Assembly (NCBI GenBank): GCA_026188615.1
Contig: GCA_026188615.1_4525.1
Source: a phage
Direction: 5' to 3' (one strand)
Length of the DNA: 64,000 nucleotides
The notes under the pieces were generated by a model. The model saw only the letters and a list, made by a program, of their open reading frames with translations. It did not search any database and was not told where the DNA came from. The number at the start of each line of letters is the position of its first letter. Position 1 is the stretch's first letter. A program made the position numbers and the translations under genes. This document shows positions 4,905 through 18,569 of this stretch, piece after piece.

Positions 4905-4964
4905 TTCAATTTCCTCTGTAGTTGATAGAAAGATAGTAACACAGTATGTGGTGCTTGTAAACAA

Positions 4965-5177
4965 CTATTTTAAACTTTTGCGAAATTTGCGTTTTTCTTG
5001 ACGAATCTGTCGTTTAGTCGGACGTACAGCAAATTTAACGAAGTCCACTTTACCGTGTGGAAACTTTTCAGATGCTTCACAGTCCATCATTAGTTCCCAT
5101 CCTTCCAGAATAAGAGCTTTCCATTGTGTAGTTGATGCAAATTCGTATGTTGATGGTTTAAACACAGTTGAATACAT
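4965..5177 (-). CDS. hypothetical small basic protein (C-terminal VRPTKRQ motif)
   Basis: Start moved to internal Met so that it abuts the dmd stop; paralog of 33408..33578. Confidence 0.45.
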   Translation of the reverse strand: MYSTVFKPSTYEFASTTQWKALILEGWELMMDCEASEKFPHGKVDFVKFAVRPTKRQIRQEKRKFRKSLK

Positions 5178-5178
5178 A

Positions 5179-5373
5179 TTATCCTCTGAAATCAGCTTCG
5201 AAAACTTTCTCGTCATTAACAAATGCTTTAACTAATGCTTTATTAATTTCAGCAAACTGCATGGTAGCCCACATGATATGCTCTTTGTCTGTTATATCCA
5301 TGCGGATTTCTTTGGTAAACATACTACCATTTTCAAACCAACCAATAAAAACTACTTTAGCAAACTCTTCCAT
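5179..5373 (-). CDS. dmd: antitoxin Dmd (61.5)
   Basis: 64 aa; KVVFxGWFxNxSMFTKEI...WATxQxAEINKALVKAF matches T4 Dmd. Confidence 0.85.
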   Translation of the reverse strand: MEEFAKVVFIGWFENGSMFTKEIRMDITDKEHIMWATMQFAEINKALVKAFVNDEKVFEADFRG

Positions 5374-5691
5374 TTAGATTTCCTCACAGAACGCCCATTC
5401 AGCATGATAAACTGTAGCGCCTTTAGTATCATTCATTTGAACTACATCTACCGGAGAAATTACTCGATAGAGTCGTGGTTCACCTCCATAAGAGCGTGCA
5501 GCTCGTCCTGCATAAATCTTTGCTAAACCGATATCTTCAGTAAAGAATACACGATCCAAGTTTTTCTTACGTCCAGTTTCAGACAGAACTCCTGTTTCCT
5601 CAGGAGGACAAAGCATGTTTTCGATGTTAGCTGAACTACTTGAACCGTGATAAAAAATCTTAAATTCTGCTTTACAATCGATGGTTTTCAT
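5374..5691 (-). CDS. hypothetical protein
   Basis: 105-aa ORF with RBS. Confidence 0.5.
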   Translation of the reverse strand: MKTIDCKAEFKIFYHGSSSSANIENMLCPPEETGVLSETGRKKNLDRVFFTEDIGLAKIYAGRAARSYGGEPRLYRVISPVDVVQMNDTKGATVYHAEWAFCEEI

Positions 5692-5717
5692 TTTGTTCTC
5701 CAGTAGTTGATAGGTCT

Positions 5718-5746
5718 ATAATAACACAACTACTGGAGAAGTAAAC
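5718..5746 (-). promoter_or_regulatory. early-type promoter
   Basis: GTTTAC-N17-TATTAT upstream of ORF 5374..5691. Confidence 0.55.
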
Positions 5747-6121
5747 TTAAAAACGTAATTTAGATATATCTGCGTTGATTTCGTTTTGGTTCGCGTCATA
5801 TGCAATTAAACGAACCGCTTTAGACGGGTCATTCAATGCATAGAAATGATGGAACATTGCTCGAACGATATCACCATTTACGAGTTCTACCTGGATAGGA
5901 GAACCTTTTTCGAGTTGGAAATGTTCATAAGCTTTGATGGTTCGTAGATAATCAAGTTTTTGATTTCCAGCTCCAACTATTTGTACGATACGTTTGCCCA
6001 TGTTTTCCATACGAGATACAATAGTTTTAGGAGCAAGAATAACGTAGGTTGCCAGCGGAGAAACTACTTCAACAGTTGTGTTTTCGGTGATTGCAGTAAA
6101 AATTGCTTGAGACATATTCAT
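5747..6121 (-). CDS. hypothetical protein
   Basis: 124-aa ORF, RBS AGAGGA, early promoter and terminator upstream. Confidence 0.55.
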   Translation of the reverse strand: MNMSQAIFTAITENTTVEVVSPLATYVILAPKTIVSRMENMGKRIVQIVGAGNQKLDYLRTIKAYEHFQLEKGSPIQVELVNGDIVRAMFHHFYALNDPSKAVRLIAYDANQNEINADISKLRF

Positions 6122-6150
6122 AATGTTTTCCTCTTGGTTGGTGTAAGTAC

Positions 6151-6180
6151 ATCATATCATGCCTAGAGGAAGATGTAAAC
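6151..6180 (-). promoter_or_regulatory. early-type promoter
   Basis: GTTTAC-N18-TATGAT upstream of ORF 5747..6121. Confidence 0.5.
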
Positions 6181-6183
6181 CCC

Positions 6184-6209
6184 AAAAGGAGACCGAAGTC
6201 TCCTTTTTT
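6184..6209 (-). terminator. rho-independent terminator hairpin (bidirectional)
   Basis: GGAGAC-CGAA-GTCTCC flanked by A4 and T6, just after gene 41 stop. Confidence 0.7.
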
Positions 6210-6210
6210 A

Positions 6211-7653
6211 TTAAAATTTTAACTCATTGGCTAAGCTATCTAGGTCAGCACGTGTTGCTTTGGCTTTACCTACGCGTTCCGTACGATTCACCTCTGCCTG
6301 ACGCATCTGAGCACCTGCGTTTTCATTTACTGTGTTAGGTGTGTTCATGCCTTCTTGCTCGATCTCAATCCATTTCTGGTTGCCTTTACGTACACCCATC
6401 AGGAATTTATTCCACTTATTCTTATCGCCGTATCGTGATTTGATTTGTTTGATAAGTTGTTGTTCAGCTTGTGCAAGTTCTTCGGTTTCAATTACGGCCA
6501 ACATGAAATCTGCCGTTGCTGGTAAACCTGCTGATTCTGCAATATCACTCATGTTCATATCCGAAGCATCCCATGCTGCACGCCCTACTTGAGCTGCAGT
6601 CCATAGAACTGTTTCAGATTCTACTGCTAATGCACGAAGTTCTTCTGCGATAGCTTTAACTAATGTGTAGCTATTTTCAGTGTAAACTCTGATACGACAA
6701 GACCCACAAATACCTAAGTAATCAACCATGATTACAGATGGCACAAAGTTCTTCTTGAGTTTCAATTCATTAAGCAATGCACGGAATGTATTAGCATTAG
6801 CTCCGCCAGTAGGATACTGTTTAACTACTAAACGTCCTAATGTGGATTTTGAACGCCATTTTTCCATCTTGGCTTTATATTCGGCATAAGATACGTTACC
6901 ATCATCGATATCATCAAGTGATACGTCAAGCATGTTTGCATCTATACGCTTAGCACAAACTTCTTCAGCCATTTCCATAGAAATATAAAGAACGTTATGG
7001 CCTGTTTGAAGATAATCTGCAGCAAGTGAACAAAGGCCTAAAGATTTACCGACGTTAACACCAGCCATTAAAACGTTTAGTGTACCTGTTTCTGCACCGC
7101 CTTTAGTGATTTTATTCAAAATGTTTAATTTGAACGGGACCTTACGTGCTTTATTTAGATAAGAAAGCCAGCGTGCTTCGTAGTCTTCCATCCAGTCATG
7201 TCCAACATAACTATCAAACGAAATTGAAAGTGCTTGACGCATAATATCAGGAATAGCTCCTACATCAGGCATTTTCTTGTTACGTTGTTCTGGAGGTAGT
7301 TCAGCATTAGACTGAATCTCAATGATTTTGGATGTAGCATTATACATCGCTTTTTGCTGGACATATTTCTCAGTTTCTTTAACCAACCATTCGTGGTCTT
7401 CAGGAGTATCAGCCAATTTTTCAATTAGGTCTGAAGTTCCTTTATATTCGGCTTCAGTTAAAGAACTGTTATCTAAAGCCACCTTTAATGCATTGATAGA
7501 TGGCATTGCATTATATTCGTTAACGTGGCTCTTTATAATTTTAAAGACATTTTTTGCCGGTCCACGCTCAAAATACTCAGAATCCATATAAGGCCAGACC
7601 TTAGAAAAATAAGCCTGGTCATATACTAGATGAGACAAAATAATTTCTACCAC
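6211..7653 (-). CDS. 41: replicative DNA helicase gp41 (DnaB family)
   Basis: 480 aa; MVEIILSHL..., Walker A GVNVGKS; start codon appears to be GTG. Confidence 0.93.
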   Translation of the reverse strand: MVEIILSHLVYDQAYFSKVWPYMDSEYFERGPAKNVFKIIKSHVNEYNAMPSINALKVALDNSSLTEAEYKGTSDLIEKLADTPEDHEWLVKETEKYVQQKAMYNATSKIIEIQSNAELPPEQRNKKMPDVGAIPDIMRQALSISFDSYVGHDWMEDYEARWLSYLNKARKVPFKLNILNKITKGGAETGTLNVLMAGVNVGKSLGLCSLAADYLQTGHNVLYISMEMAEEVCAKRIDANMLDVSLDDIDDGNVSYAEYKAKMEKWRSKSTLGRLVVKQYPTGGANANTFRALLNELKLKKNFVPSVIMVDYLGICGSCRIRVYTENSYTLVKAIAEELRALAVESETVLWTAAQVGRAAWDASDMNMSDIAESAGLPATADFMLAVIETEELAQAEQQLIKQIKSRYGDKNKWNKFLMGVRKGNQKWIEIEQEGMNTPNTVNENAGAQMRQAEVNRTERVGKAKATRADLDSLANELKF

Positions 7654-9267: not shown

Positions 9268-9816
9268 TTAACGAGCCCATTTGATAATTTCTGTAATCAA
9301 ATAATTACGTTCGCTTGCATTAAATCCTATAACTTTGTTAGCACCATCATGATTAAGTAATTGATACGTTTGGATTTTGTTATGAATTGCAAACTCTTCA
9401 AAATGTGAAATGGCTGTATTAAAACCGAATGAAGACAAAGTAATAAGGTCGTCTTCAAAACTTTCAGTCATTTCGTTACGTGTTAAAATAATTGTGAACA
9501 CATCATGGTTTTGGCAAAGACGAATATAATCCTGTTCATAAACGTCAAGAACCGAGTCCGCATCTTGTCGAATACGTCCATAAACCCAGTTACTAATATA
9601 TCCACGGTCTAACAGATAAATCTTAGTAGGGTCTAAATAATTCAACATCGTTTCGAAACAGCCAACTTCATTTCGAGACTTAACATCGAAACGTCCATCA
9701 ACTGTTCGTTTAGGGAAATCAATCTTTACATATCTTTCACTAATTTCCATTATGTCATTAATGAAAGTTGTTTTACCGGCATTATCCGGGCCATCTACTA
9801 AAATAATTTTAGCCAT
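9268..9816 (-). CDS. P-loop kinase-like protein (thymidylate-kinase-like Walker A)
   Basis: 182 aa; IILVDGPDNAGKTT and DRGYIS motifs; occupies the T4 beta-gt locus together with 9818..10717. Confidence 0.6.
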   Translation of the reverse strand: MAKIILVDGPDNAGKTTFINDIMEISERYVKIDFPKRTVDGRFDVKSRNEVGCFETMLNYLDPTKIYLLDRGYISNWVYGRIRQDADSVLDVYEQDYIRLCQNHDVFTIILTRNEMTESFEDDLITLSSFGFNTAISHFEEFAIHNKIQTYQLLNHDGANKVIGFNASERNYLITEIIKWAR

Positions 9817-9817
9817 T

Positions 9818-10717
9818 TTATTCCTCGATTACGACATCTTCGTATTTAGGTATATTATACGGCGAAGAAATTAAAGCATTAAAGTAGATGAACTCACCAA
9901 GACCTGGATGGAATACTTCTTCAGGATTTTCGAAATATTGAATCTTCGGACGTCCTTTAAGAATTTGATAGTACTCAGTTTTAGTTGGTTTAAAAATTCG
10001 AATCAGCGCTTCTTCAGGATACTTATTTCTGTCGAAGCTATTATTTGGATCGGTTATATAAAGCGGTTGGCCTAATTGAATTGCACATTCAACCACTTGT
10101 TCAAAACGATAGCACGGGTCACTAATTCGAAATGGATGAAAAATACCATCTAGATGAATAGGAGCCAAATCACCTACAAGACGCTGCATGATGGAAGGAC
10201 GTATAACTTTCTGAGTTACGATAATCTTATTACCATCTGCACCTGCGTTAACCAGCACTTCTTTTTGACGTTCATTCAACACAGTAGTTTGAAGTGAACT
10301 ATTAACTGACAACATATCGGTTTTTAAGAATTCGTCAATATAAAAACGTGGTTTATTAGGGTCTGCCGTGATATTGAAATTGAATTCTACATCAAAAGCG
10401 CCGTCATAACCAGTGATATCTGTTATTAGAAAATCACAATCATAATAAGCAATTAATGAATCAACCACAAATTCATTTTCAGACCAGAAATATTTACGAG
10501 TGTTATACGCGTTATCTTTATACCATAATGGAACAAACTTAAATTCTGGGAAAAGACGTTCACATTCTTTAATATCAGATGCATTACGTGGATATGTAAT
10601 CACATCACCTGGATTAGCACGGTGCAAATGAAGTTGGAAGTTGCCATCCTTAAGGATAGCATACTGTCCAGTTTCATAAGACCGCATACTCAAGATAGGT
10701 ACGCGGAAAATAGCCAT
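9818..10717 (-). CDS. hypothetical protein (299 aa) in place of beta-glucosyltransferase
   Basis: No recognisable motif; TAATG stop/start overlap with gene 42, 1-nt gap to downstream kinase-like gene. Confidence 0.6.
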   Translation of the reverse strand: MAIFRVPILSMRSYETGQYAILKDGNFQLHLHRANPGDVITYPRNASDIKECERLFPEFKFVPLWYKDNAYNTRKYFWSENEFVVDSLIAYYDCDFLITDITGYDGAFDVEFNFNITADPNKPRFYIDEFLKTDMLSVNSSLQTTVLNERQKEVLVNAGADGNKIIVTQKVIRPSIMQRLVGDLAPIHLDGIFHPFRISDPCYRFEQVVECAIQLGQPLYITDPNNSFDRNKYPEEALIRIFKPTKTEYYQILKGRPKIQYFENPEEVFHPGLGEFIYFNALISSPYNIPKYEDVVIEE

Positions 10718-11433
10718 TAGTCAAGGAATCCTTTAACATAATCAAAATCACGTTCAAACACATGGGCACTTACCATGGTATGAGTATAATCACCAACTTC
10801 TACACCGCATTCGTTAGCGATATAATGAAGTAATTTTCCTTGGAGATAAAAATCCAACTGCATAACAACAGCACAGTTCTGAGAACGCATATGGCAGTGG
10901 GTATAAAGCTTACCATCACGAATATAATAAGTCACTGAGTCAGTACATGGATATTCAAGCGTTTCGTCTGAATCAAGCAAAGCCTGATCAGAACTTTCTA
11001 GAATTTGGAACACAACTCTTCGGGAGTTAGGCTTCTCTTTAAGTTCTTTTAGAAGAGCTGGTAATTGGGCCGCAATGCGAGGACCATAGAAAGTGTTGAA
11101 GTTCGCCGGCAAAACATCTGATTTTGGTTTAGAAATAAATTTAGCGACATTAGGATATGCCTTAAACGCTTCTTCTGCGTTGGTACCACCAGAAATCATA
11201 AACTTCCAGAAGTCTTCGGCATATTCATAAGAGATGCGGTTAATACGTGGGTCGGTCATTTTGAATGATGATGGAGTGTCAACAACTACTGTCATAGACC
11301 CAATTTCATTACAACGTCCAATACGAGAATCAGTTACGAATTCCGGGTTTTCTAAAATTTCACGATTGACTGCTTTAAATGCGGTTTGAAAATCTGCGGC
11401 TTTGATATATTTCATTGTGTTATGTTTTCCCAT
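10717..11433 (-). CDS. 42: thymidylate-synthase-family dCMP hydroxymethylase (gp42-like)
   Basis: 238 aa; SRRVV, YPCTDSVTYYIRDG, HMRSQN and QLDF align to T4 gp42 NPDSRRGIM / FMCTNTVQYLIRD / NMRSND / RNDY motifs. Confidence 0.75.
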   Translation of the reverse strand: MGKHNTMKYIKAADFQTAFKAVNREILENPEFVTDSRIGRCNEIGSMTVVVDTPSSFKMTDPRINRISYEYAEDFWKFMISGGTNAEEAFKAYPNVAKFISKPKSDVLPANFNTFYGPRIAAQLPALLKELKEKPNSRRVVFQILESSDQALLDSDETLEYPCTDSVTYYIRDGKLYTHCHMRSQNCAVVMQLDFYLQGKLLHYIANECGVEVGDYTHTMVSAHVFERDFDYVKGFLD

Positions 11434-11452
11434 GTTTACCTCAATACAATTT

Positions 11453-11476
11453 ATTATATACTCAATTCATAAAGCT
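11453..11476 (-). promoter_or_regulatory. middle-promoter-like element (AGCTTTA box + TATAAT)
   Basis: MotA-like box 11 nt upstream of TATAAT, ~20 nt upstream of gene 42 ATG. Confidence 0.4.
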
Positions 11477-11715
11477 TATTTGAATTTCTTGGCAATGTTG
11501 ATATAACGTAAAGCTTCAGAATCTATACTTCCAAGAACACTATGAAGGAATGCATCAGTGTAGTATTCCAATTGAACAGGTTCTTTAATCACTTTAGCCG
11601 CTTTGGTTTCAAACAGGCCCATAAGGGCCTTTTTAAGAATTTGTTCGTTAGTGTTCAGTTTCATAGTCAAAATCTCTTCGTTAAGTTTATAATTAAAACT
11701 TTTTCTAGAAATCAT
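11476..11715 (-). CDS. hypothetical protein (79 aa)
   Basis: ATGA start/stop overlap with upstream 386-aa gene; soluble, no motif. Confidence 0.5.
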   Translation of the reverse strand: MISRKSFNYKLNEEILTMKLNTNEQILKKALMGLFETKAAKVIKEPVQLEYYTDAFLHSVLGSIDSEALRYINIAKKFK

Positions 11716-12872
11716 TCCGGGTACCTCAAAGCGTCATCAGAGTTAGTTATATCAATAATAGATATGGAGTTTTCTGCTAACCCGTTTTTAGATAATTGAC
11801 GTTTATAATACCTTTCACAATATGTACACGTTGACCCACAGATTTCATTAGCACAATCAAAATCTGGATGTCTGAACCACCTTTTTTCTAAAAAGCCATC
11901 TAACAAAGAGGTTTCAATATTTACTGTATGTGAAAACTCAGTCTCATTTTCAAGAGTGAAAATAGTCTCTAAAGGCTTCCACAGTTCTAACAAATTACCT
12001 TCAAACTTTTCAGAAGCGTATGCTTCAAGAACTTTCAAAATGTAGTCTGTGCTACCTGTACGTCCTGAAACTTTGAATTGAGTGATACCAATATCATTAT
12101 AAAGTTTCAAATCTTGAGGACGAACAAAACGAGTTCTCAACCAGTTAAATGGGTCTGTATCACGAGCTTTAATACAGTGCTGCATTGGATATCCGTTTAA
12201 GGATTTAGCATCATCAGCTGTAACATCAGTACTATGGAAAATATAGCAAGAGTCACGATAGCTACAATGTGTTGTATACCCTTTACCAGCATTAGAACAG
12301 AACTCATTTACAAGAACTTCAAATATTATATTGTTCTTATTGCAAAACTCTGCTGCACGCTTCAGGAAAGAAACTGAACGGTTCTTATGAATTCCACAGC
12401 AGACCTTTTTGATATTATATTGGTCATGCAAGTATTTGATTTGAGTTACAGCATCGACATGTAGAATTGTTGAAACTTCAATCTCAATGTCTTTATTGAC
12501 TTCACGAACAATTTCCATAACAACAGGGTTAGCGATAGTAATACGCCATACGCCTATTGACCAAAGATACTGAACATAATCCTGAATAGCTTTCTTCTTC
12601 CACTCAACTAGTTCTCTTTTTGAACCAGGATTTATCGTGTTGAGTGTATAGTTAAAGCAAATACCTAATTCGTTACAACGTTTAACGTAGTCTTCTAACA
12701 TCTTTTTGTCAACGTCAGGAAGCCTAAAATCAGGTCTGGCTGCTACAAAAGCCATTTCTCTTGTAGAGCCGTATACTTCGTTTATCAAGCTATTAGGATA
12801 AGTTTTATTGAGCTCTACGATTTTATCAAGAAGAGCTAAATCAAAATTCGTTCCGATTTTAAAAGTATTCAT
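11712..12872 (-). CDS. Cys-rich hypothetical enzyme (386 aa)
   Basis: Multiple Cys clusters (KVCCGIH; NEFCSN...HCSYRDSC; C-terminal CANEICGSTCTYC); weak resemblance to Fe-S/TIM-barrel enzymes, not assignable. Confidence 0.55.
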   Translation of the reverse strand: MNTFKIGTNFDLALLDKIVELNKTYPNSLINEVYGSTREMAFVAARPDFRLPDVDKKMLEDYVKRCNELGICFNYTLNTINPGSKRELVEWKKKAIQDYVQYLWSIGVWRITIANPVVMEIVREVNKDIEIEVSTILHVDAVTQIKYLHDQYNIKKVCCGIHKNRSVSFLKRAAEFCNKNNIIFEVLVNEFCSNAGKGYTTHCSYRDSCYIFHSTDVTADDAKSLNGYPMQHCIKARDTDPFNWLRTRFVRPQDLKLYNDIGITQFKVSGRTGSTDYILKVLEAYASEKFEGNLLELWKPLETIFTLENETEFSHTVNIETSLLDGFLEKRWFRHPDFDCANEICGSTCTYCERYYKRQLSKNGLAENSISIIDITNSDDALRYPE

Positions 12873-12928
12873 TTTTTTGCATCTCGCGTTAATTGATGCG
12901 ATGGTTTTTGCAGGTCTTACTTAAATTA

Positions 12929-13330
12929 TTATAGATTCGGTTTATATGATTTAAATGTTTCGAATTCGCCTTTATTCATAAGAGCTTTGAATTCGTCAGG
13001 ACGCATAGCTTTGTCGTCGATAATCCAATCATATACTGGTTTATGTGTTAGCAAATTATGGTACTTCAAACCAATGTTTTCCAAGTTCTGAATCAGACTT
13101 GGGAGAATGTCAATTGCTATACGACCAGGACCTACTGACTTCATACCACGAGCAGTGTAAAGCGTTATGGTATGCCCTGCATCATACAGGGCATTAATGG
13201 CAGACACCATTTCGACGTCTGGTTTGAAGTTCACGTAATCACGATTGTTATTCCATTCCGTGATGCAATCATCGACATCAAAACAAAGATTAAGCATGTT
13301 TTCTACACGGTGCATTAGATTCGTTCCCAT
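12929..13330 (-). CDS. HAD-superfamily phosphatase (KdsC-like small sugar-phosphate phosphatase)
   Basis: 133 aa; motif I FDVDDCIT, motif II ITLYTAR, motif IV WIIDDK; 16-nt overlap with upstream gene. Confidence 0.65.
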   Translation of the reverse strand: MGTNLMHRVENMLNLCFDVDDCITEWNNNRDYVNFKPDVEMVSAINALYDAGHTITLYTARGMKSVGPGRIAIDILPSLIQNLENIGLKYHNLLTHKPVYDWIIDDKAMRPDEFKALMNKGEFETFKSYKPNL

Positions 13331-15000
13331 TGATGAGTGATATCGCCACCGATTGGACGATAGGAAACACCAGTTTCTTTATCAGTTAGTACCCATTTAC
13401 CCGGATTTTTTGTAATCAGAGTAGCCGTTACAGGTTCTGCTACGTCATAACTAATAGAGCCGTCTTGAAGTACACGGCCCATGTTACGTAATTGCTTAGT
13501 CAGAAGTTCCATACCTTTATAATATGCGGCTACCGCTTTAAGTGGATTATTCTTGAAATAACCACCTAATGCAATCCAGATAATTGCTACAGCCAAATGA
13601 TGATACTCGTTAAACGAACTCATCTTTCCATATTTGTAAACTAATGGATTGATGTTAATAGTCACATTACAAGTTGTTTCATCAATAGTAAACTGTCCCC
13701 AGGCCGGATTAGCATTGAATTCATCATAACCTGAAACAGCATAAAGCACTTTAGCTTCATCATATAATTTTGGCCCGTAAATCTTGGTTTCGCCAAAATA
13801 TCCACGAGGGTCGATAAACTTGACTTCACCGTTATCAGTAATCATAGTATTACTGAAGTTCGGGTCACCATGAATAACAGAGTACTGTCCCTGAGAACGA
13901 TTATGATAACGAATAAGGTGTTCTAAAGCTTGTTTCAGCATTGGCTTCAGACGTCCAATCTTAGTGTAGTTCACATGTGTGATTTTACCAAATGAATCAA
14001 TCAATGGTTGAATGCTTTCACAACGATCAATAACTTTCGTATAGAATTCTTTAGTGAAATCACGACGAACAGTTTCAGGACTTACAAAATAAGTGTCTGT
14101 GCTGAATTTCAGTGCATCTAAAATTGCATCAACAATTTGTGGACGAGCAAGACTTGATTTGGATTTAATATATTCAAATGCCGGCTTACCTTTAATGCGT
14201 TCCATTTCAAAATTATTTTCATTAACAGAAACTAACTGAGGAACTGAATCTGATTTCACTTTAAGATACCATGAAATCTCATCTTTCTGAAGAGCTCGAC
14301 CCTGTTCGGTTAATGCGAATTTAGTTACAGTTTCTTCACCAATTTCAACTGCATTAAAACTACGGTTCAGTTCACGAACTTCATGAGCTTTTTCAAGTTT
14401 AGGCATATCACCTAAATCAATTAGATTCATAAGCTCTGATTTATTGAATGCGCTACCGTAAAGGAATTCTACGAAATCACGTCCTTTGCAGTATTCATGA
14501 ATTTCTTCATCGGTGGAACCCATATAGAATTCCCAGTCTTTGAACTGATAAATTCCTACAACATTACCACCTGTTGAACCTACGTTAGTGATATTTTCAC
14601 CGTCGAAATTATATCGACATTCGTCACCCTTAACATAGATTGCGTTAACATTCCAAGACCATGAACCAAAATCCGGAATAATATCACACCAGTTAACAAT
14701 TACATTATGGCCGTCTAAATCTTTGTGTAATTTAGCAAGAGCATAAGCAGAACCATACGCTTCATCAACTGTACGAATAGTCACATTGAACCCTTCTTGC
14801 TCACAATAAGCTCGAACAGTTTCAGCAAATTTTGAATGAACTACTACAATAATTTCATCTGCGCCAAGGTCAGAATAAATTGTATACAAATTGCTCAGAA
14901 TAGTGTCTTGTTTATAGTTAACAAGCACCTTAGGAATATGATGCGTTATTGGATACAAACGAGTTGCCAGTCCAGCACCAAGAATAACAGCTTTTTTCAT
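13315..15000 (-). CDS. bifunctional sugar-1-phosphate nucleotidyltransferase / APH-type sugar kinase
   Basis: 561 aa; N-terminus KKAVILGAGLATRLYPIT (RmlA/GalU-type G-x-G-T-R-x-x-P-x-T); C-terminal VIHGDPNFSN...KFIDPRGYFG (aminoglycoside/choline-kinase-like). Confidence 0.7.
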   Translation of the reverse strand: MKKAVILGAGLATRLYPITHHIPKVLVNYKQDTILSNLYTIYSDLGADEIIVVVHSKFAETVRAYCEQEGFNVTIRTVDEAYGSAYALAKLHKDLDGHNVIVNWCDIIPDFGSWSWNVNAIYVKGDECRYNFDGENITNVGSTGGNVVGIYQFKDWEFYMGSTDEEIHEYCKGRDFVEFLYGSAFNKSELMNLIDLGDMPKLEKAHEVRELNRSFNAVEIGEETVTKFALTEQGRALQKDEISWYLKVKSDSVPQLVSVNENNFEMERIKGKPAFEYIKSKSSLARPQIVDAILDALKFSTDTYFVSPETVRRDFTKEFYTKVIDRCESIQPLIDSFGKITHVNYTKIGRLKPMLKQALEHLIRYHNRSQGQYSVIHGDPNFSNTMITDNGEVKFIDPRGYFGETKIYGPKLYDEAKVLYAVSGYDEFNANPAWGQFTIDETTCNVTININPLVYKYGKMSSFNEYHHLAVAIIWIALGGYFKNNPLKAVAAYYKGMELLTKQLRNMGRVLQDGSISYDVAEPVTATLITKNPGKWVLTDKETGVSYRPIGGDITHQWERI

Positions 15001-15041
15001 GTTGAAGTCCTCATTGGTAAGTAGGAGTATTGTACACTATT

Positions 15042-15185
15042 CTAGTTAAAGCATTCATACTTTGCTTGTAGTCCAATCATAATCCATCCAATTACAAGTG
15101 TTGGAATCATTACTGGAGCCGTTAAGCTCCAGTAGATAGTCATGACAAGCATCAATAGTAAAAGTCCTATTGTTATTGCTTTCAT
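15042..15185 (-). CDS. small hydrophobic peptide (47 aa), not in ORF track
   Basis: MKAITIGLLLLMLVMTIYWSLTAPVMIPTLVIGWIMIGLQAKYECFN; its ATG overlaps the TGA of the SIS gene (ATGA); ends 42 nt before the nucleotidyltransferase start. Confidence 0.5.
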   Translation of the reverse strand: MKAITIGLLLLMLVMTIYWSLTAPVMIPTLVIGWIMIGLQAKYECFN

Positions 15186-15817
15186 TGTTCGCCTCGTAAC
15201 ATGGCACCTAGTGCACCGCCTGGATGGAACTTAAGGAAATCATTAGAGGTAAATCCGCGTTCAGACGAAAGGTTGATAGCGAACGTATCGATAAGCGCTA
15301 ACAACAATGTAGTAGACATTGTCGGAGCTAAAGAGTTCTCGTCAACTTCTACTGCGATGCCTGTACAGAAAGAGTAATCAAAAAGGGCTTCATTTTCTTG
15401 TGGAATGTCTGGGTTACAATGCAACAGAATCTGTTTGACGTTCGGTCGAATCATTTTAAGATGCTTAGCCACGCCTATCATTTCTTCAGTTTTACCAGAA
15501 CGACTAATATGAATCAACACGTCATTAGGCGCAATAAATCCTGCATCACCGTGAGAATAATGTCCAGTGTTCAAGTACATACTCGGGATACCGAGTGAAG
15601 CAAATGTCTCAGAAGCTTTAGTTGCAATATTAGCATTCTTACCAACACCTGTAATAATTACTCGGCTTTCATAATTACTAAGTCCCGGGCGTCGAAGAGT
15701 TTCTAGAATAGCATTATAACGAGCAGGGTTTTGACTAATTACTTTGGCCATAGCGGCCAAAGAAGAAGCTTGTTTTATGATTGCGTCAATAGCGATAGTA
15801 ATAGGAGTAGTTTTCAT
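15182..15817 (-). CDS. SIS-domain sugar-phosphate isomerase (KdsD/GutQ arabinose-5-phosphate isomerase-like, no CBS domains)
   Basis: 211 aa; GVGKNANIATKASETFASLG and FHPGGALG motifs typical of SIS isomerases. Confidence 0.7.
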   Translation of the reverse strand: MKTTPITIAIDAIIKQASSLAAMAKVISQNPARYNAILETLRRPGLSNYESRVIITGVGKNANIATKASETFASLGIPSMYLNTGHYSHGDAGFIAPNDVLIHISRSGKTEEMIGVAKHLKMIRPNVKQILLHCNPDIPQENEALFDYSFCTGIAVEVDENSLAPTMSTTLLLALIDTFAINLSSERGFTSNDFLKFHPGGALGAMLRGEQ

Positions 15818-15857
15818 ATTTCTCTCATTTAATTAGTTTACCGTCCATGACATTATA

Positions 15858-18569
15858 TCAAAAATCGAACATATCGAACAGAGATGCTTTCTTCTCATAA
15901 TCGAGTTTCGCTGCTGATGTGAATCCTTCAAGTGGTTTAATAAATGTCTTCTCAAGGAGAACAGTGTAGTCCATCCAATGAAGTACATCATCTTTGATTA
16001 AATCAGTGATTTCCGTACCAGAAGGCCATGCGATACATTTATCACCGAATGGGTTTCCTTCACGTAAAGGCAGAACATATACTTTTTCACCTTCTACAAC
16101 TTGCGGCGCATCGATATTACCTTTGATAGCCCGGTTATACGTCAGAATTCCACGAATATGGAACGGGCATTTGGGACCAGGGAATCCACCGACGTCATAT
16201 TTAGCAATGTTATTCGCAGAAGATACCGACGCGATGCTAATATAATTCAATTGACGGAATTCTTTTTCAAACTCTTTAAAATATTCTTGTAATGATTCTT
16301 CACCTTCTTGAAGCATACGACGAATACATTCCTTAAGAGCTTTCTGTACTGCTTTAGGGGTTGAAGATTTCTGTGTTTCGAGACCCATGATTTTAAGCTT
16401 AGGTTCAGCGTATCTAGTTCCTTCCATATCCCACACGTTTAATGCATAACGTTTCTTACCAGTCCAGAATCCACCAATACCTTTAGAACCGAGCGGAGGA
16501 CCAGCGATAGCTTCTCGGTCCATGAACATCAAATGTTGTTTATTGTTCATGTATTCACACATTTCACGGAAACCTCTATCAATAGCTGGTTCCATACGTT
16601 CACGTGCAAACTTATCTAAGAAGTCTACCCAATGGTTAGTATCACGGAATTTAGATTCACCAACCTTATCGATAATTTTATCAGCAGATACGTAAATAGA
16701 GTCTGTATCACCATAAAGAACGAAAGCTTCGCCTTCTGTACCACAAACTTCATTCAGGTATTCATTAACTTTACGTTCAATCCACTGTAAAGCCATTTGC
16801 CCGAATGTTGTGATTGCAGTAGCATTACGCAAATCATAATAACGGAACCAAACGTTGCCAAGTGCACCATAAAGTGAGTTGATAAGCAATTTACGGTTAA
16901 TCTGTGCAGTCATACCTGCAACTTCAGTACGTTGAGCTCTAAACAACATTTCATTAAGAGATTTAGCAGACAACTTTTTAATCTTTTCTTTAATCTCATC
17001 GCTGAAGTCGAAACGATAATCAACATCTAATGGTTCGTCAACAGAAAGATTAGGATTATGCAATGCCTCTTTAATTATTTCACCATTACGTTGAGCTGCA
17101 AGCATGTAACCTTTATGTTCTTTACGTTGATTAAAGACCTTAGTGATTTCAGTTGGAACTACACCATCACGGTCTTTATAATACATCATGCCGTTAGGAG
17201 AACAACTGTACACATCTGAAGGACGTTCAGCGATTGCGTTAATATAATCATGCAATGGAGCTACTTTAAACGTTCCTGCTATTGTTTCTGGGCTAATATT
17301 CACTTGGCGAATAATACTTGGATACAGAGATGTAAGGTCGAAACTCATTACATATTTGTATCGATTTGGAATAGGTTCCTTAACAAAAGCGCCAGGATAA
17401 GGTTGAACCGGGTGAGAACGACCTTGTGGAATCACCTTGTTCTGCTCTTTAAGGCTATTAAAAATAATAGCATCCCATGTTTTAATTGGGCTAAACACAG
17501 ATTGAATCTGTATCTTAGCATAATAACCCATGTCCAAGCTCAAGTTGATGAACTGACGCTTAGCATCAATTTGCAATACACGATACACGTCGATAATGTT
17601 ATAAGAAATATATCGTTGGTGATTGCTTTCACGAAGCTTAGAAATAGGGCCGTCATATTTCAGTTTACCAACGTTCAATTCAAATTCTGAAATGTAATCC
17701 AGAGAATATGACGGTTGGTTCGTGAAAGAGAACTTTTTGTAAAGGTCAATGTAATCAAGAACAGAGATACCGAACAATGTAATGATTTCACGAGAACCAT
17801 ACATGTTTTCGATAACTTTAACACGAGTTTTACGATGTGGTGATAAACGTTTCGCAGTAGATTCGCCAAAAATATTCTTGATTCGGTTATACACATATGG
17901 AATATCAAATGACTCAACGTTCCATCCAGTCAAAATGACAGGAGTTTTCTGTTGCCAGAAGTTGAGATATTCCATCAATAATTCTTTTTCATTATCAAAC
18001 GGCATATAAACGATTTTGTCGATAATTTCGGATGGAACTTCATCACCACCTTGTTCTTGAAGCTTAGCTGCAATTTCGATAGACCATTCTTCTACATTAC
18101 CATATGGAGAATTCAATAGATCAAATACGTAGAACCTGTCGTCAATTGAGTCATAATGGGTGATAGCATCAATCGGATGTTTTGCTTGTGACGGCTCAGG
18201 GAACCCGTCCGGAGATGTTACTTCGATGTCGAAGTTAGCCACACGAATTTTTGTATGGTCGTATTTGATTTCATAGTTATAAGTGTCAGACAAATACGCC
18301 AATTTGAAATCGTCCATGCCAAGTGCTTCAAGTCCGATATCTTCCATGCGTTTAATCCATTGGGAGGCATCACGCATATTAGCGAACAACTTACGAGTAC
18401 ACGGCTTACCGTAGATATCGAAATATTTCGTAGCCTGACTTTCTGGACAATGAGCAAACAGTGATGGTTTATATTCTACTTCACGAGTACGTTCACGACC
18501 GTTAGAATCGATGTAACGTTCAAAAATTGAATCACCAATCTGTTCAACCGTTAAGTAAAATTCTTTCAT
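15858..18569 (-). CDS. 43: DNA polymerase gp43 (family B)
   Basis: 903 aa; MKEFYLTVEQIGDSIFERYIDSNGRERTREVEYKPSLFAHC... matches my recollection of RB69 gp43; exo and pol motifs (FDIEV, YGDTDS) present. Confidence 0.97.
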   Translation of the reverse strand: MKEFYLTVEQIGDSIFERYIDSNGRERTREVEYKPSLFAHCPESQATKYFDIYGKPCTRKLFANMRDASQWIKRMEDIGLEALGMDDFKLAYLSDTYNYEIKYDHTKIRVANFDIEVTSPDGFPEPSQAKHPIDAITHYDSIDDRFYVFDLLNSPYGNVEEWSIEIAAKLQEQGGDEVPSEIIDKIVYMPFDNEKELLMEYLNFWQQKTPVILTGWNVESFDIPYVYNRIKNIFGESTAKRLSPHRKTRVKVIENMYGSREIITLFGISVLDYIDLYKKFSFTNQPSYSLDYISEFELNVGKLKYDGPISKLRESNHQRYISYNIIDVYRVLQIDAKRQFINLSLDMGYYAKIQIQSVFSPIKTWDAIIFNSLKEQNKVIPQGRSHPVQPYPGAFVKEPIPNRYKYVMSFDLTSLYPSIIRQVNISPETIAGTFKVAPLHDYINAIAERPSDVYSCSPNGMMYYKDRDGVVPTEITKVFNQRKEHKGYMLAAQRNGEIIKEALHNPNLSVDEPLDVDYRFDFSDEIKEKIKKLSAKSLNEMLFRAQRTEVAGMTAQINRKLLINSLYGALGNVWFRYYDLRNATAITTFGQMALQWIERKVNEYLNEVCGTEGEAFVLYGDTDSIYVSADKIIDKVGESKFRDTNHWVDFLDKFARERMEPAIDRGFREMCEYMNNKQHLMFMDREAIAGPPLGSKGIGGFWTGKKRYALNVWDMEGTRYAEPKLKIMGLETQKSSTPKAVQKALKECIRRMLQEGEESLQEYFKEFEKEFRQLNYISIASVSSANNIAKYDVGGFPGPKCPFHIRGILTYNRAIKGNIDAPQVVEGEKVYVLPLREGNPFGDKCIAWPSGTEITDLIKDDVLHWMDYTVLLEKTFIKPLEGFTSAAKLDYEKKASLFDMFDF

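Follow-up and report, generated by a model that had tools for sequence, protein, structure and literature searches.

Layout and conservation of the locus

A 64,000-nucleotide stretch of phage DNA (contig GCA_026188615.1_4525.1 of assembly GCA_026188615.1; hereafter 'the window') carries, between DNA polymerase gene 43 and uvsX, a compact block of genes that an earlier note had described as the sugar-donor arm of a DNA hypermodification pathway. The six tightly packed open reading frames (ORFs) reported at 11476–15817 were confirmed at those positions, all on the minus strand and in the order listed below when read from the gene 43 side. Spacing at the junctions varied between −16 nt (overlap) and +56 nt (gap), and at two of them, SIS isomerase/47-aa peptide and U32 protein/79-aa protein, stop and start codons overlap as ATGA. 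The polymerase gene (15858–18569) flanks the block on one side; on the other lie a ThyA-family gene (10717–11433), a 299-aa ORF, a 182-aa kinase-like ORF and then uvsX. The functional cluster reaches past 11476, where the earlier note had ended it, to 9268, taking in the ThyA-like gene, a glycosyltransferase and a nucleotide kinase, and as a whole occupies 9268–15817, from gene 43 to uvsX:

15182–15817, minus strand: SIS isomerase, orthologue of RB69 gp55; 211 aa, C-terminal end FHPGGALGAMLRGEQ
15042–15185, minus strand: hydrophobic peptide, RB69 gp54; 47 aa
13315–15000, minus strand: nucleotidyltransferase/kinase fusion, RB69 ORF53_52c, analogue of HY126 AfhE; 561 aa
12929–13330, minus strand: HAD-type phosphatase, RB69 gp51, analogue of HY126 AfhF; 133 aa
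11712–12872, minus strand: U32-family protein, putatively Fe-S, RB69 gp50; 386 aa
11476–11715, minus strand: helical protein, RB69 gp49; 79 aa
10717–11433, minus strand: predicted ThyA-family 5-hydroxy-dCMP synthase, RB69 gp48; outside the coordinates of the earlier note
9818–10717, minus strand: predicted DNA arabinosyltransferase 1, RB69 gp46:47; intact 299-aa ORF
9268–9816, minus strand: thymidylate-kinase-like nucleotide kinase, RB69 gp45; 182 aa

Megablast of positions 11400–15900 matched 199 phage records, 156 at 95–99% identity and 43 more distant. The best match was phage PhAPEC2 (98.4%), RB69 was 97.8% identical over the full length, and the six ORFs correspond to RB69 p055, p054, p053+p052, p051, p050 and p049. 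The window phage is a Mosigvirus with a strain-level variant of the RB69-type cluster, and the conservation of the six-ORF block across the 156 and 43 records shows that these ORFs have not come together by chance. Base composition of the region was unremarkable, and a scan of it for sigma-70 promoters and terminators gave counts no higher than in shuffled controls. We consider it very probable that the region is the central part of an RB69-type cluster for arabinosyl-5-hydroxycytosine DNA hypermodification, with the U32-family protein as a candidate second route of hydroxylation.

Arabinose-donor enzymes

The 211-aa isomerase has a single SIS domain (Pfam SIS, 1e-10) and matched the NCBIfam models KpsF/GutQ (2e-32) and KdsD (7e-31; the KdsD/KpsF models lie at residues 48–207), the PDB entries 3etn (2.6e-25) and 2xhz (KdsD; 3.5e-19) and PHROG 5670, 'arabinose 5-phosphate isomerase' (4e-116), with 100% tblastn identity to RB69p055. 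At the N-terminus of the 561-aa fusion, a nucleotidyltransferase fold spanning residues 3–109 was detected by Pfam NTP_transferase (8.5e-10, residues 3–99), PDB 1jyk LicC (2e-5) and NCBIfam sugar-1-phosphate nucleotidyltransferases (archaeal GlmU-type and MurU models); residues 308–409 gave weak kinase-fold matches (Fructosamin_kin, EcKL and APH), and the fusion was 99% identical to the RB69 region. The 133-aa phosphatase was near-identical to PDB 9iqw (4e-87; next 1xpj, 1.5e-10), and its sole NCBIfam match was TIGR01689, the EcbF/BcbF capsule-biosynthesis phosphatase (1.9e-13). Searched with Pfam and NCBIfam profiles, it had no Pfam match and matched no KdsC model, so that of its earlier description as a KdsC-like HAD phosphatase the HAD type stands (9iqw, TIGR01689) and the KdsC likeness does not.

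Arabinose is present in RB69 DNA, eight non-T4 genes form a module between polymerase and uvsX in that phage, and ORF055c and ORF53_52c were proposed for UDP-arabinose synthesis (Thomas 2018, PMC6024577); gp55, gp52:53 and gp51 have since been allotted to the donor route (Lee 2026, PMC13326640). The four genes or domains concerned (SIS, the two halves of the fusion and HAD) match profiles, structures and both of these papers. The donor-pathway idea, which the earlier note had offered as its own inference, is therefore correct in outline but already known: the finding was predicted in 2018 and characterised by 2026, and the literature has overtaken it. Nothing that we found connects the other three genes of the block, which had been counted into the donor module, with making the donor; the 386-aa protein is a member of the U32 family and not a donor-pathway enzyme.

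The order of steps for the HY126 enzymes, as relayed in the text of Lee 2026 (PMC13326640, citing He 2026), is ribulose-5-phosphate to arabinose-5-phosphate by the SIS isomerase, arabinose-5-phosphate to arabinose-1,5-bisphosphate by the AfhE kinase domain, removal of the 5-phosphate by the AfhF phosphatase to give arabinose-1-phosphate, and conversion of this to UDP-arabinofuranose by the AfhE nucleotidyltransferase domain. Carried over by orthology, the window's SIS isomerase would divert ribulose-5-phosphate to arabinose-5-phosphate, the kinase domain of the 561-aa fusion would make the 1,5-bisphosphate, the HAD phosphatase would strip the 5-phosphate to leave arabinose-1-phosphate, and the fusion's nucleotidyltransferase domain would make UDP-arabinofuranose.

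The SIS isomerase was undetected by tblastn in Dhakavirus, some Klebsiella phages and Proteus phages that have AfhE and HAD homologues (JS10, locus L005 5440–5940; L018, L022, L023 and L029), and in these the kinase gene separates the HAD gene from the following one. Such phages may have another source of arabinose-5-phosphate or may use a different sugar.

The modified base and its glycosylation

The ThyA-like protein shares 233 of 238 residues with PDB 9iqc and, in gapless alignment to E. coli ThyA, has C146 together with L143E, D169N and N177D (register RSQNCAVVMQLD in the window protein against RSCDVFLGLPFN in E. coli ThyA; LEYPC against LAPC). The combination D169N/N177D/L143E is the signature used for 5-hydroxy-deoxycytidine monophosphate (5-hydroxy-dCMP) synthases; RB69 gp48 binds flavin, and its 5-hydroxy-dCMP product takes oxygen from 18O2 (Lee 2026, PMC13326640). 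As its sequence indicates, the gene is a flavin/O2-dependent 5-hydroxy-dCMP synthase and not the gp42 hydroxymethylase that it had been taken for: it carries Asn at position 169, where a dCMP hydroxymethylase has Asp. The base itself, determined in RB69 by mass spectrometry (MS) and nuclear magnetic resonance (NMR), is 5-hydroxycytosine with ether-linked mono- and di-arabinose (Lee 2026, PMC13326640), in place of the 5-hydroxymethylcytosine (hmC) assumed earlier.

The 299-aa glycosyltransferase was 97–98% identical to the RB69 region of the split ORFs 046c/047c and matched PHROG 3891; gp46:47 is allotted as DNA arabinosyltransferase 1 (Lee 2026 Table 1, PMC13326640). The transferase beside the block is of this gp46:47 type; the T4-type alpha- and beta-glucosyltransferase genes, a-gt and b-gt, are missing from RB69-type phages (PMC6024577). 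The 182-aa kinase matched PHROG 761, 'thymidylate kinase' (2.5e-44), and its RB69 counterpart, gp45, is listed in the same table of Lee 2026 (PMC13326640). By orthology, the ThyA-like flavoenzyme would hydroxylate dCMP with O2 in parallel with donor synthesis, and after incorporation into DNA the glycosyltransferase (9818–10717) would attach arabinose to the 5-OH. A PDB sequence search with the U32 protein, the glycosyltransferase and the kinase gave no useful match.

In the RB69 GenBank record the 561-aa gene is split (052c/053c; 4915–6601 of the RB69 locus, L001), as is the 299-aa gene (046c/047c; 1418–2318), whereas both are intact in the window. Re-sequencing has shown a single-base error behind the 052c/053c split (Thomas 2018, PMC6024577), and the 046c/047c split has likewise been put down to sequencing error (Lee 2026, PMC13326640); the intact window ORFs agree with this view.

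A U32-family protein as a candidate second hydroxylase

The 386-aa protein matched Pfam Peptidase_U32 (PF01136; 7e-11, 42.2 bits against a cut-off of 22.4), and its AlphaFold2 model, a TIM barrel predicted with confidence (predicted local distance difference test score (pLDDT) 93.3, predicted template modelling score (pTM) 0.91), had the U32 protein 5d88 as its best PDB structural match. When the phage U32 family was compared by hhalign with its E. coli paralogues, RlhA aligned at 80% probability (E 1.4e-5, 205 columns), TrhP at 13%, UbiU at 5% and UbiV at 0.3%; the targets were single E. coli sequences and the ranking is only indicative, pointing to RlhA as the closest paralogue. Ten cysteines were 98–100% conserved in an alignment of 121 U32 homologues (nine invariant, C177 at 98%): C158, C177, C192, C203, C209 and C233, plus the C-terminal C340-x4-C345-x3-C349-x2-C352. 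Of these, the invariant C203 and C209 fall opposite the two cysteines that mark the U32 motif (C169/C176 in RlhA and in UbiU).

RlhA makes 5-hydroxycytidine in rRNA, and both it and TrhP are of the U32 family (PMC5727448, PMC6599085). Mutants of RlhA at C169/C176 lose 5-hydroxycytidine formation, and the C-terminal cysteines of RlhA are also needed (PMC5727448). Prephenate is required by RlhA and TrhP and is the oxygen donor for UbiU-V (PMC5727448, PMC6599085, PMC10990095). Given these likenesses, we propose, with a probability of roughly 0.45–0.55, that the phage U32 protein is a prephenate-dependent, O2-independent C5-hydroxylase of a DNA precursor, making 5-hydroxy-dCMP. It would thereby offer a second route from prephenate to 5-hydroxy-dCMP when O2 is absent, and would let the phage modify its DNA while a facultatively anaerobic host grows without oxygen. 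T-even phages carry both aerobic and anaerobic ribonucleotide reductases. Enzyme pairs of the proposed kind have precedents in TrhP/TrhO for tRNA and UbiUV/UbiHFI for ubiquinone (PMC6599085, PMC10990095). Our literature search, outside which He 2026 and Mahler 2025 fell (either may assign or test the gene), found nothing linking U32 proteins to phage DNA hydroxylation.

Genomic company of U32

Neighbouring genes connect the U32 protein with prephenate and with DNA precursors. The gene after U32 in Serratia phage LC53 encodes a chorismate mutase (CM; Pfam CM_2, 44.6 bits against a cut-off of 27), the product of which is prephenate. An LC53-type CM was found by tblastn in 56 phage records and lay between the U32/p79 genes (p79 being the 79-aa protein) and the ThyA-like gene in every locus inspected or annotated; the order in Yersinia phage TG1, for example, is U32, p79 homologue, CM, ThyA-like. 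The hosts of CM-bearing phages include Serratia, Erwinia, Kosakonia, Yersinia, Klebsiella and Enterobacter, and further Proteus, Providencia, Morganella, Edwardsiella, Pectobacterium and Shewanella.

A protein search returned 263 U32 relatives, with Straboviridae orthologues at 76–88% identity followed by many proteins of ~360 aa at 48–58%. Six relatives from outside Straboviridae were placed on contigs of 44–466 kb with phage-type genes (DnaE polymerase, single-stranded DNA-binding protein, holin, Mu F), and a scan of IMG/VR gave 32 additional non-Straboviridae loci. Metagenomic loci were examined for 8 kb on each side of U32, and several are near-duplicates. Among 127 neighbours at 18 representative U32 loci, Pfam found Thymidylate_kin (6), DAHP_synth_1 (5), CM_2 (4), NTP_transferase (4), SIS (4) and dUTPase (3), and two of the 3-deoxy-D-arabino-heptulosonate 7-phosphate (DAHP) synthase neighbours were fused to CM_2. 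Two loci (L045 and L042) have the order AfhE-like, Thymidylate_kin, DAHP-synthase/CM_2 fusion, HAD, U32, and in another (L031) DAHP synthase comes directly after U32. A dCMP deaminase directly precedes U32 in L058 and a dUTPase/DCD in L061, while L034 and L013 have the order Thymidylate_kin, full-length arabinosyltransferase homologue (E 8e-17 and 2e-10), U32, DnaE. Because it is accompanied by dedicated deoxynucleoside monophosphate kinases, dCMP deaminase and dUTPase, U32 would probably act at the mononucleotide level, and, with dCMP deaminase adjacent, the substrate in some U32-only phages could be dUMP instead of dCMP.

We considered whether the DAHP_synth_1 neighbours might be KdsA, in a route from arabinose-5-phosphate of the 3-deoxy-D-manno-octulosonate (Kdo) type, and rejected this on their scores (221 bits for DAHP synthase against 67 bits for KDO8P synthase).

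Three side observations concern genes next to U32. At locus L012 (8098–13179) the genes after U32 are a weakly matching TAGT-type glycosyltransferase and a dUTPase/DCD, with a UDP-galactopyranose mutase nearby, and no ThyA-like gene turned up at distances of up to 7 kb. The arrangement recalls the galactofuranosyl-5-hydroxycytosine system that has reportedly been described for Rhizobium phage RL38J1. At locus L007 (12160–15428) a U32 homologue stands beside NT5C, a nicotinamide mononucleotide transporter and a deoxynucleoside kinase, and the contig also encodes a nucleoside 2-deoxyribosyltransferase, a radical-SAM/SPASM protein and, faintly recognisable, another U32-like protein; judging from a dockerin/GH43 gene close by, the host may be an anaerobic cellulose degrader. 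An IS605 OrfB/TnpB (Cas12f-like) gene lies directly upstream of U32, after the arabinose-donor genes, at the IMG/VR locus L041 (6689–7948).

Distribution of the two hydroxylase candidates

We compared the occurrence of U32 and of the ThyA-like enzyme using a tblastn matrix in which the nine window proteins and the CM of LC53 served as queries against all fetched loci, together with a ThyA-like scan that was keyed on two conserved peptide motifs and misses distant relatives. The ThyA-like protein occurred in 346 phage records and the AfhE homologue in 377, each including 57 Acinetobacter phages. U32 occurred in 222 phage records and in 0 of the 57 Acinetobacter phages, and every phage carrying it infects Enterobacterales or Shewanella. 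Bacteria of the genus Acinetobacter are obligate aerobes. The Acinetobacter phage DLP3 has the whole pathway, with no U32, p79 or CM, and its DNA carries tri-arabinosyl-5-hydroxycytosine (PMC13326640), which shows that the sugar chemistry can proceed without U32.

The 32 non-Straboviridae U32 loci included homologues of AfhE (16), SIS (9) and arabinosyltransferase 1 (GT1; 7), and a ThyA-like match within 8 kb of U32 was found at only 1 of the 32 (L033; weak, 23% identity). Homologues of the 182-aa kinase accompany U32 at loci with no ThyA-type gene detected. Conversely, the ThyA-like scan returned 35 loci, among them Acinetobacter phages, Dhakaviruses and five unclassified contigs, the last with a ThyA-like/GT1/kinase cassette and no U32; the U32-only set and the ThyA-like loci had no contig in common. 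There are thus three configurations (both enzymes, ThyA-like only and U32 only) with the same glycosyltransferase and kinase families in each. One would expect this if the acceptor base provided by U32 were of the same kind as that provided by the ThyA-like enzyme. Tentatively, and with slightly less than even odds, U32 would be the first prephenate-dependent, O2-independent hydroxylase acting on a DNA precursor; it would give RB69-type phages aerobic and anaerobic routes and, in many uncultivated phages, replace the ThyA-type enzyme, with a phage CM or DAHP synthase/CM supplying the oxygen donor.

Several points weigh against a hydroxylase role for U32. On the U32-bearing genomes that appeared to have no ThyA-type gene, one may lie beyond the 8 kb. 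The correlation of U32 with host is clustered in a few phage clades and does not represent independent events, and E. coli Dhakaviruses such as JS10 carry the pathway without U32, which is therefore not required on an E. coli host. Within the window, tblastn found no chorismate mutase (best E 0.58); PheA and TyrA supply prephenate in E. coli (PMC10990095). The canonical CX6CX15CX3-4C spacing is not matched by the phage protein, which has C192-x10-C203-x5-C209-x23-C233. Hydroxylase activity has not yet been reconstituted in vitro for any U32 protein (PMC10990095), and RB69 gp50 is labelled 'sugar or heterocycle reductase', without discussion, in the table of Lee 2026, which cites Kimura 2017 (RlhA) and Lauhon 2019 but draws no link from them to gp50 (PMC13326640).

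Alternative explanations

The chemistry first suggested for this block, in which an NDP-pentose is made via free arabinose and the sugar is placed on hmC from an adjacent gp42 hydroxymethylase, is highly improbable. All four enzyme types that it requires are present, arabinosyl-hmC was the interpretation given in 2018 (PMC6024577), and Table 1 of Lee 2026 keeps the older wording 'dephosphorylates Araf5p to Ara' (PMC13326640); the text of that paper nevertheless gives, from HY126 biochemistry, the route arabinose-5-phosphate to 1,5-bisphosphate to 1-phosphate, and its NMR and MS data place an ether link on 5-hydroxycytosine (PMC13326640). The ThyA-like gene, moreover, has the D169N signature, and 5-hydroxy-dCMP is made from 18O2. 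It is also unlikely, though less so, that U32 acts reductively on a sugar or heterocycle in the glycan branch, as the label in Table 1 of Lee 2026 would have it (PMC13326640). The position of the gene between the phosphatase and the ThyA-like gene would fit such a role, and redox reactions could be carried out at its two probable Fe-S sites; against this, Lee 2026 offers no argument for the label, DLP3 makes its tri-arabinosylated base without any U32 gene, U32 homologues also occur at loci that lack detected arabinose-donor genes but have nucleotide-metabolism genes, and the recurrent link with chorismate mutase is left unexplained.

A third possibility, which we regard as quite unlikely, is that U32 hydroxylates RNA (phage or host tRNA at U34, or rRNA at C2501) in the manner of TrhP or RlhA, apart from DNA modification. 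T4-like phages encode tRNAs, which speaks for it. The sole nucleic-acid activities assigned to U32 proteins are likewise on RNA (PMC5727448, PMC6599085), but the phage protein lacks the additional C-terminal parts that TrhP (453 aa) and RlhA (653 aa, DUF3656) possess, E. coli already encodes both of those enzymes, and at more than 40 loci in several lineages the neighbours of U32 are DNA-precursor and DNA-glycosylation genes. That U32 is a collagenase-like protease, as the GenBank and PHROG annotations ('peptidase', 'collagenase-like protease') and old reports of collagenolytic activity of PrtC would suggest, is scarcely credible: no catalytic mechanism has been established for U32 'peptidases', those family members whose function has been characterised are hydroxylation factors, and neither the conserved cysteines nor the genomic context fits.

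Should U32 prove to be a hydroxylase of DNA precursors, this would account for upkeep of the modification without oxygen, since the known synthase needs O2 and gut Enterobacterales hosts often grow anaerobically, and would add DNA precursors to RNA and quinones as targets of the U32/prephenate chemistry, which is poorly understood. It would also provide the soluble small-molecule substrate for in vitro assay that the U32 field is missing (PMC10990095), make phages with O-glycosylated pyrimidines traceable in metagenomes by a second marker besides ThyA D169N, and bear on the choice and engineering of such phages for therapy at anaerobic sites.

Comparison with known systems

The window has the same genes in the same order as the RB69/HY126 Afh cluster, at 97.8% DNA identity to RB69; its HAD and ThyA-like proteins are near-identical to 9iqw and 9iqc, and nothing substantive differs. 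In Acinetobacter phage DLP3, gp76–gp83 present the isomerase, kinase/nucleotidyltransferase, HAD, 5-hydroxy-dCMP synthase, glycosyltransferase and kinase in the window's order, but DLP3, the phage of an obligate aerobe, has two extra glycosyltransferases and lacks the U32, 79-aa and 47-aa genes.

With E. coli RlhA, TrhP, UbiU and UbiV the phage U32 protein shares the U32 domain, the Cys pair equivalent to C169/C176 and an RlhA-like C-terminal Cys cluster. RlhA converts C to 5-hydroxy-C, the base change proposed for the phage protein, and its proposed partnership with an O2-dependent isoenzyme resembles that of TrhP with TrhO and of UbiUV with UbiHFI. Identity, however, is ~19%, and the phage protein is the smaller one, has another Cys spacing and carries neither DUF3656 nor any other extension for RNA binding; its presumed substrate is a deoxynucleotide, whereas theirs are RNA or a quinone precursor.

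As in the glucosyl-hmC system of T4, a ThyA-family enzyme makes a modified dCMP to take the place of dCMP, GT-B transferases add sugar on DNA, and the genes lie in the gene 43–uvsX region. The base in the window's system is 5-hydroxy-C and in T4 5-hydroxymethyl-C, made with flavin and O2 in the one and methylene-tetrahydrofolate in the other. T4 uses host UDP-glucose, but the arabinose donor is not a host metabolite, which is why the phage encodes its synthesis. With respect to the Kdo pathway and capsule synthesis, the isomerase is a homologue of KdsD/KpsF/GutQ that performs the same reaction, but as a single SIS domain without CBS domains; KdsA and KdsB are absent, and the phosphatase is of the EcbF/BcbF type (TIGR01689), acting on a bisphosphate, and not KdsC-like.

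The 79-aa and 47-aa proteins and minor observations

The 79-aa protein, which begins within the ATGA that ends the U32 gene, had no family match in Pfam and fell in PHROG 8601, of unknown function. It evolves faster than U32 and is often truncated or frameshifted among homologues, and its AlphaFold2 model (pLDDT only 61) was too poor for a fold search. That it might be a diverged chorismate mutase was rejected (no CM_2 at E up to 10, BLAST E 17, hhalign against phage CM 0.1%); it is a family separate from CM, lying between U32 and CM in TG1. The LC53 CM (L002 8158–8502, 114 aa, Winklervirus) begins MRRINHTMNELV, resembling the p79-family N-terminus M.RINHKLNEEL, which suggests a deletion that fused two genes still separate in TG1 (L003 6510–7020).

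The 47-aa peptide is hydrophobic (Kyte-Doolittle ~2 over 19-residue windows) and belongs to PHROG 3610, also of unknown function; the RB69 record describes its gene as 'similar to T4 42-imm intercistronic region'. It is conserved beside the isomerase in Straboviridae of Enterobacterales, absent from the Acinetobacter phages that have the pathway, and near imm in Dhakavirus JS10. Because of this absence and its place next to imm in JS10, the peptide is probably unrelated to the pathway.

Endonuclease genes were seen in two of the related loci. A 'putative endonuclease' gene with no counterpart in the window, probably a homing endonuclease, lies between the HAD phosphatase and U32 in LC53 (L002 6352–6990), and in TG1 (L003 9951–12529) the RecA-like uvsX is annotated as two pieces with a GIY-YIG homing endonuclease gene between them.

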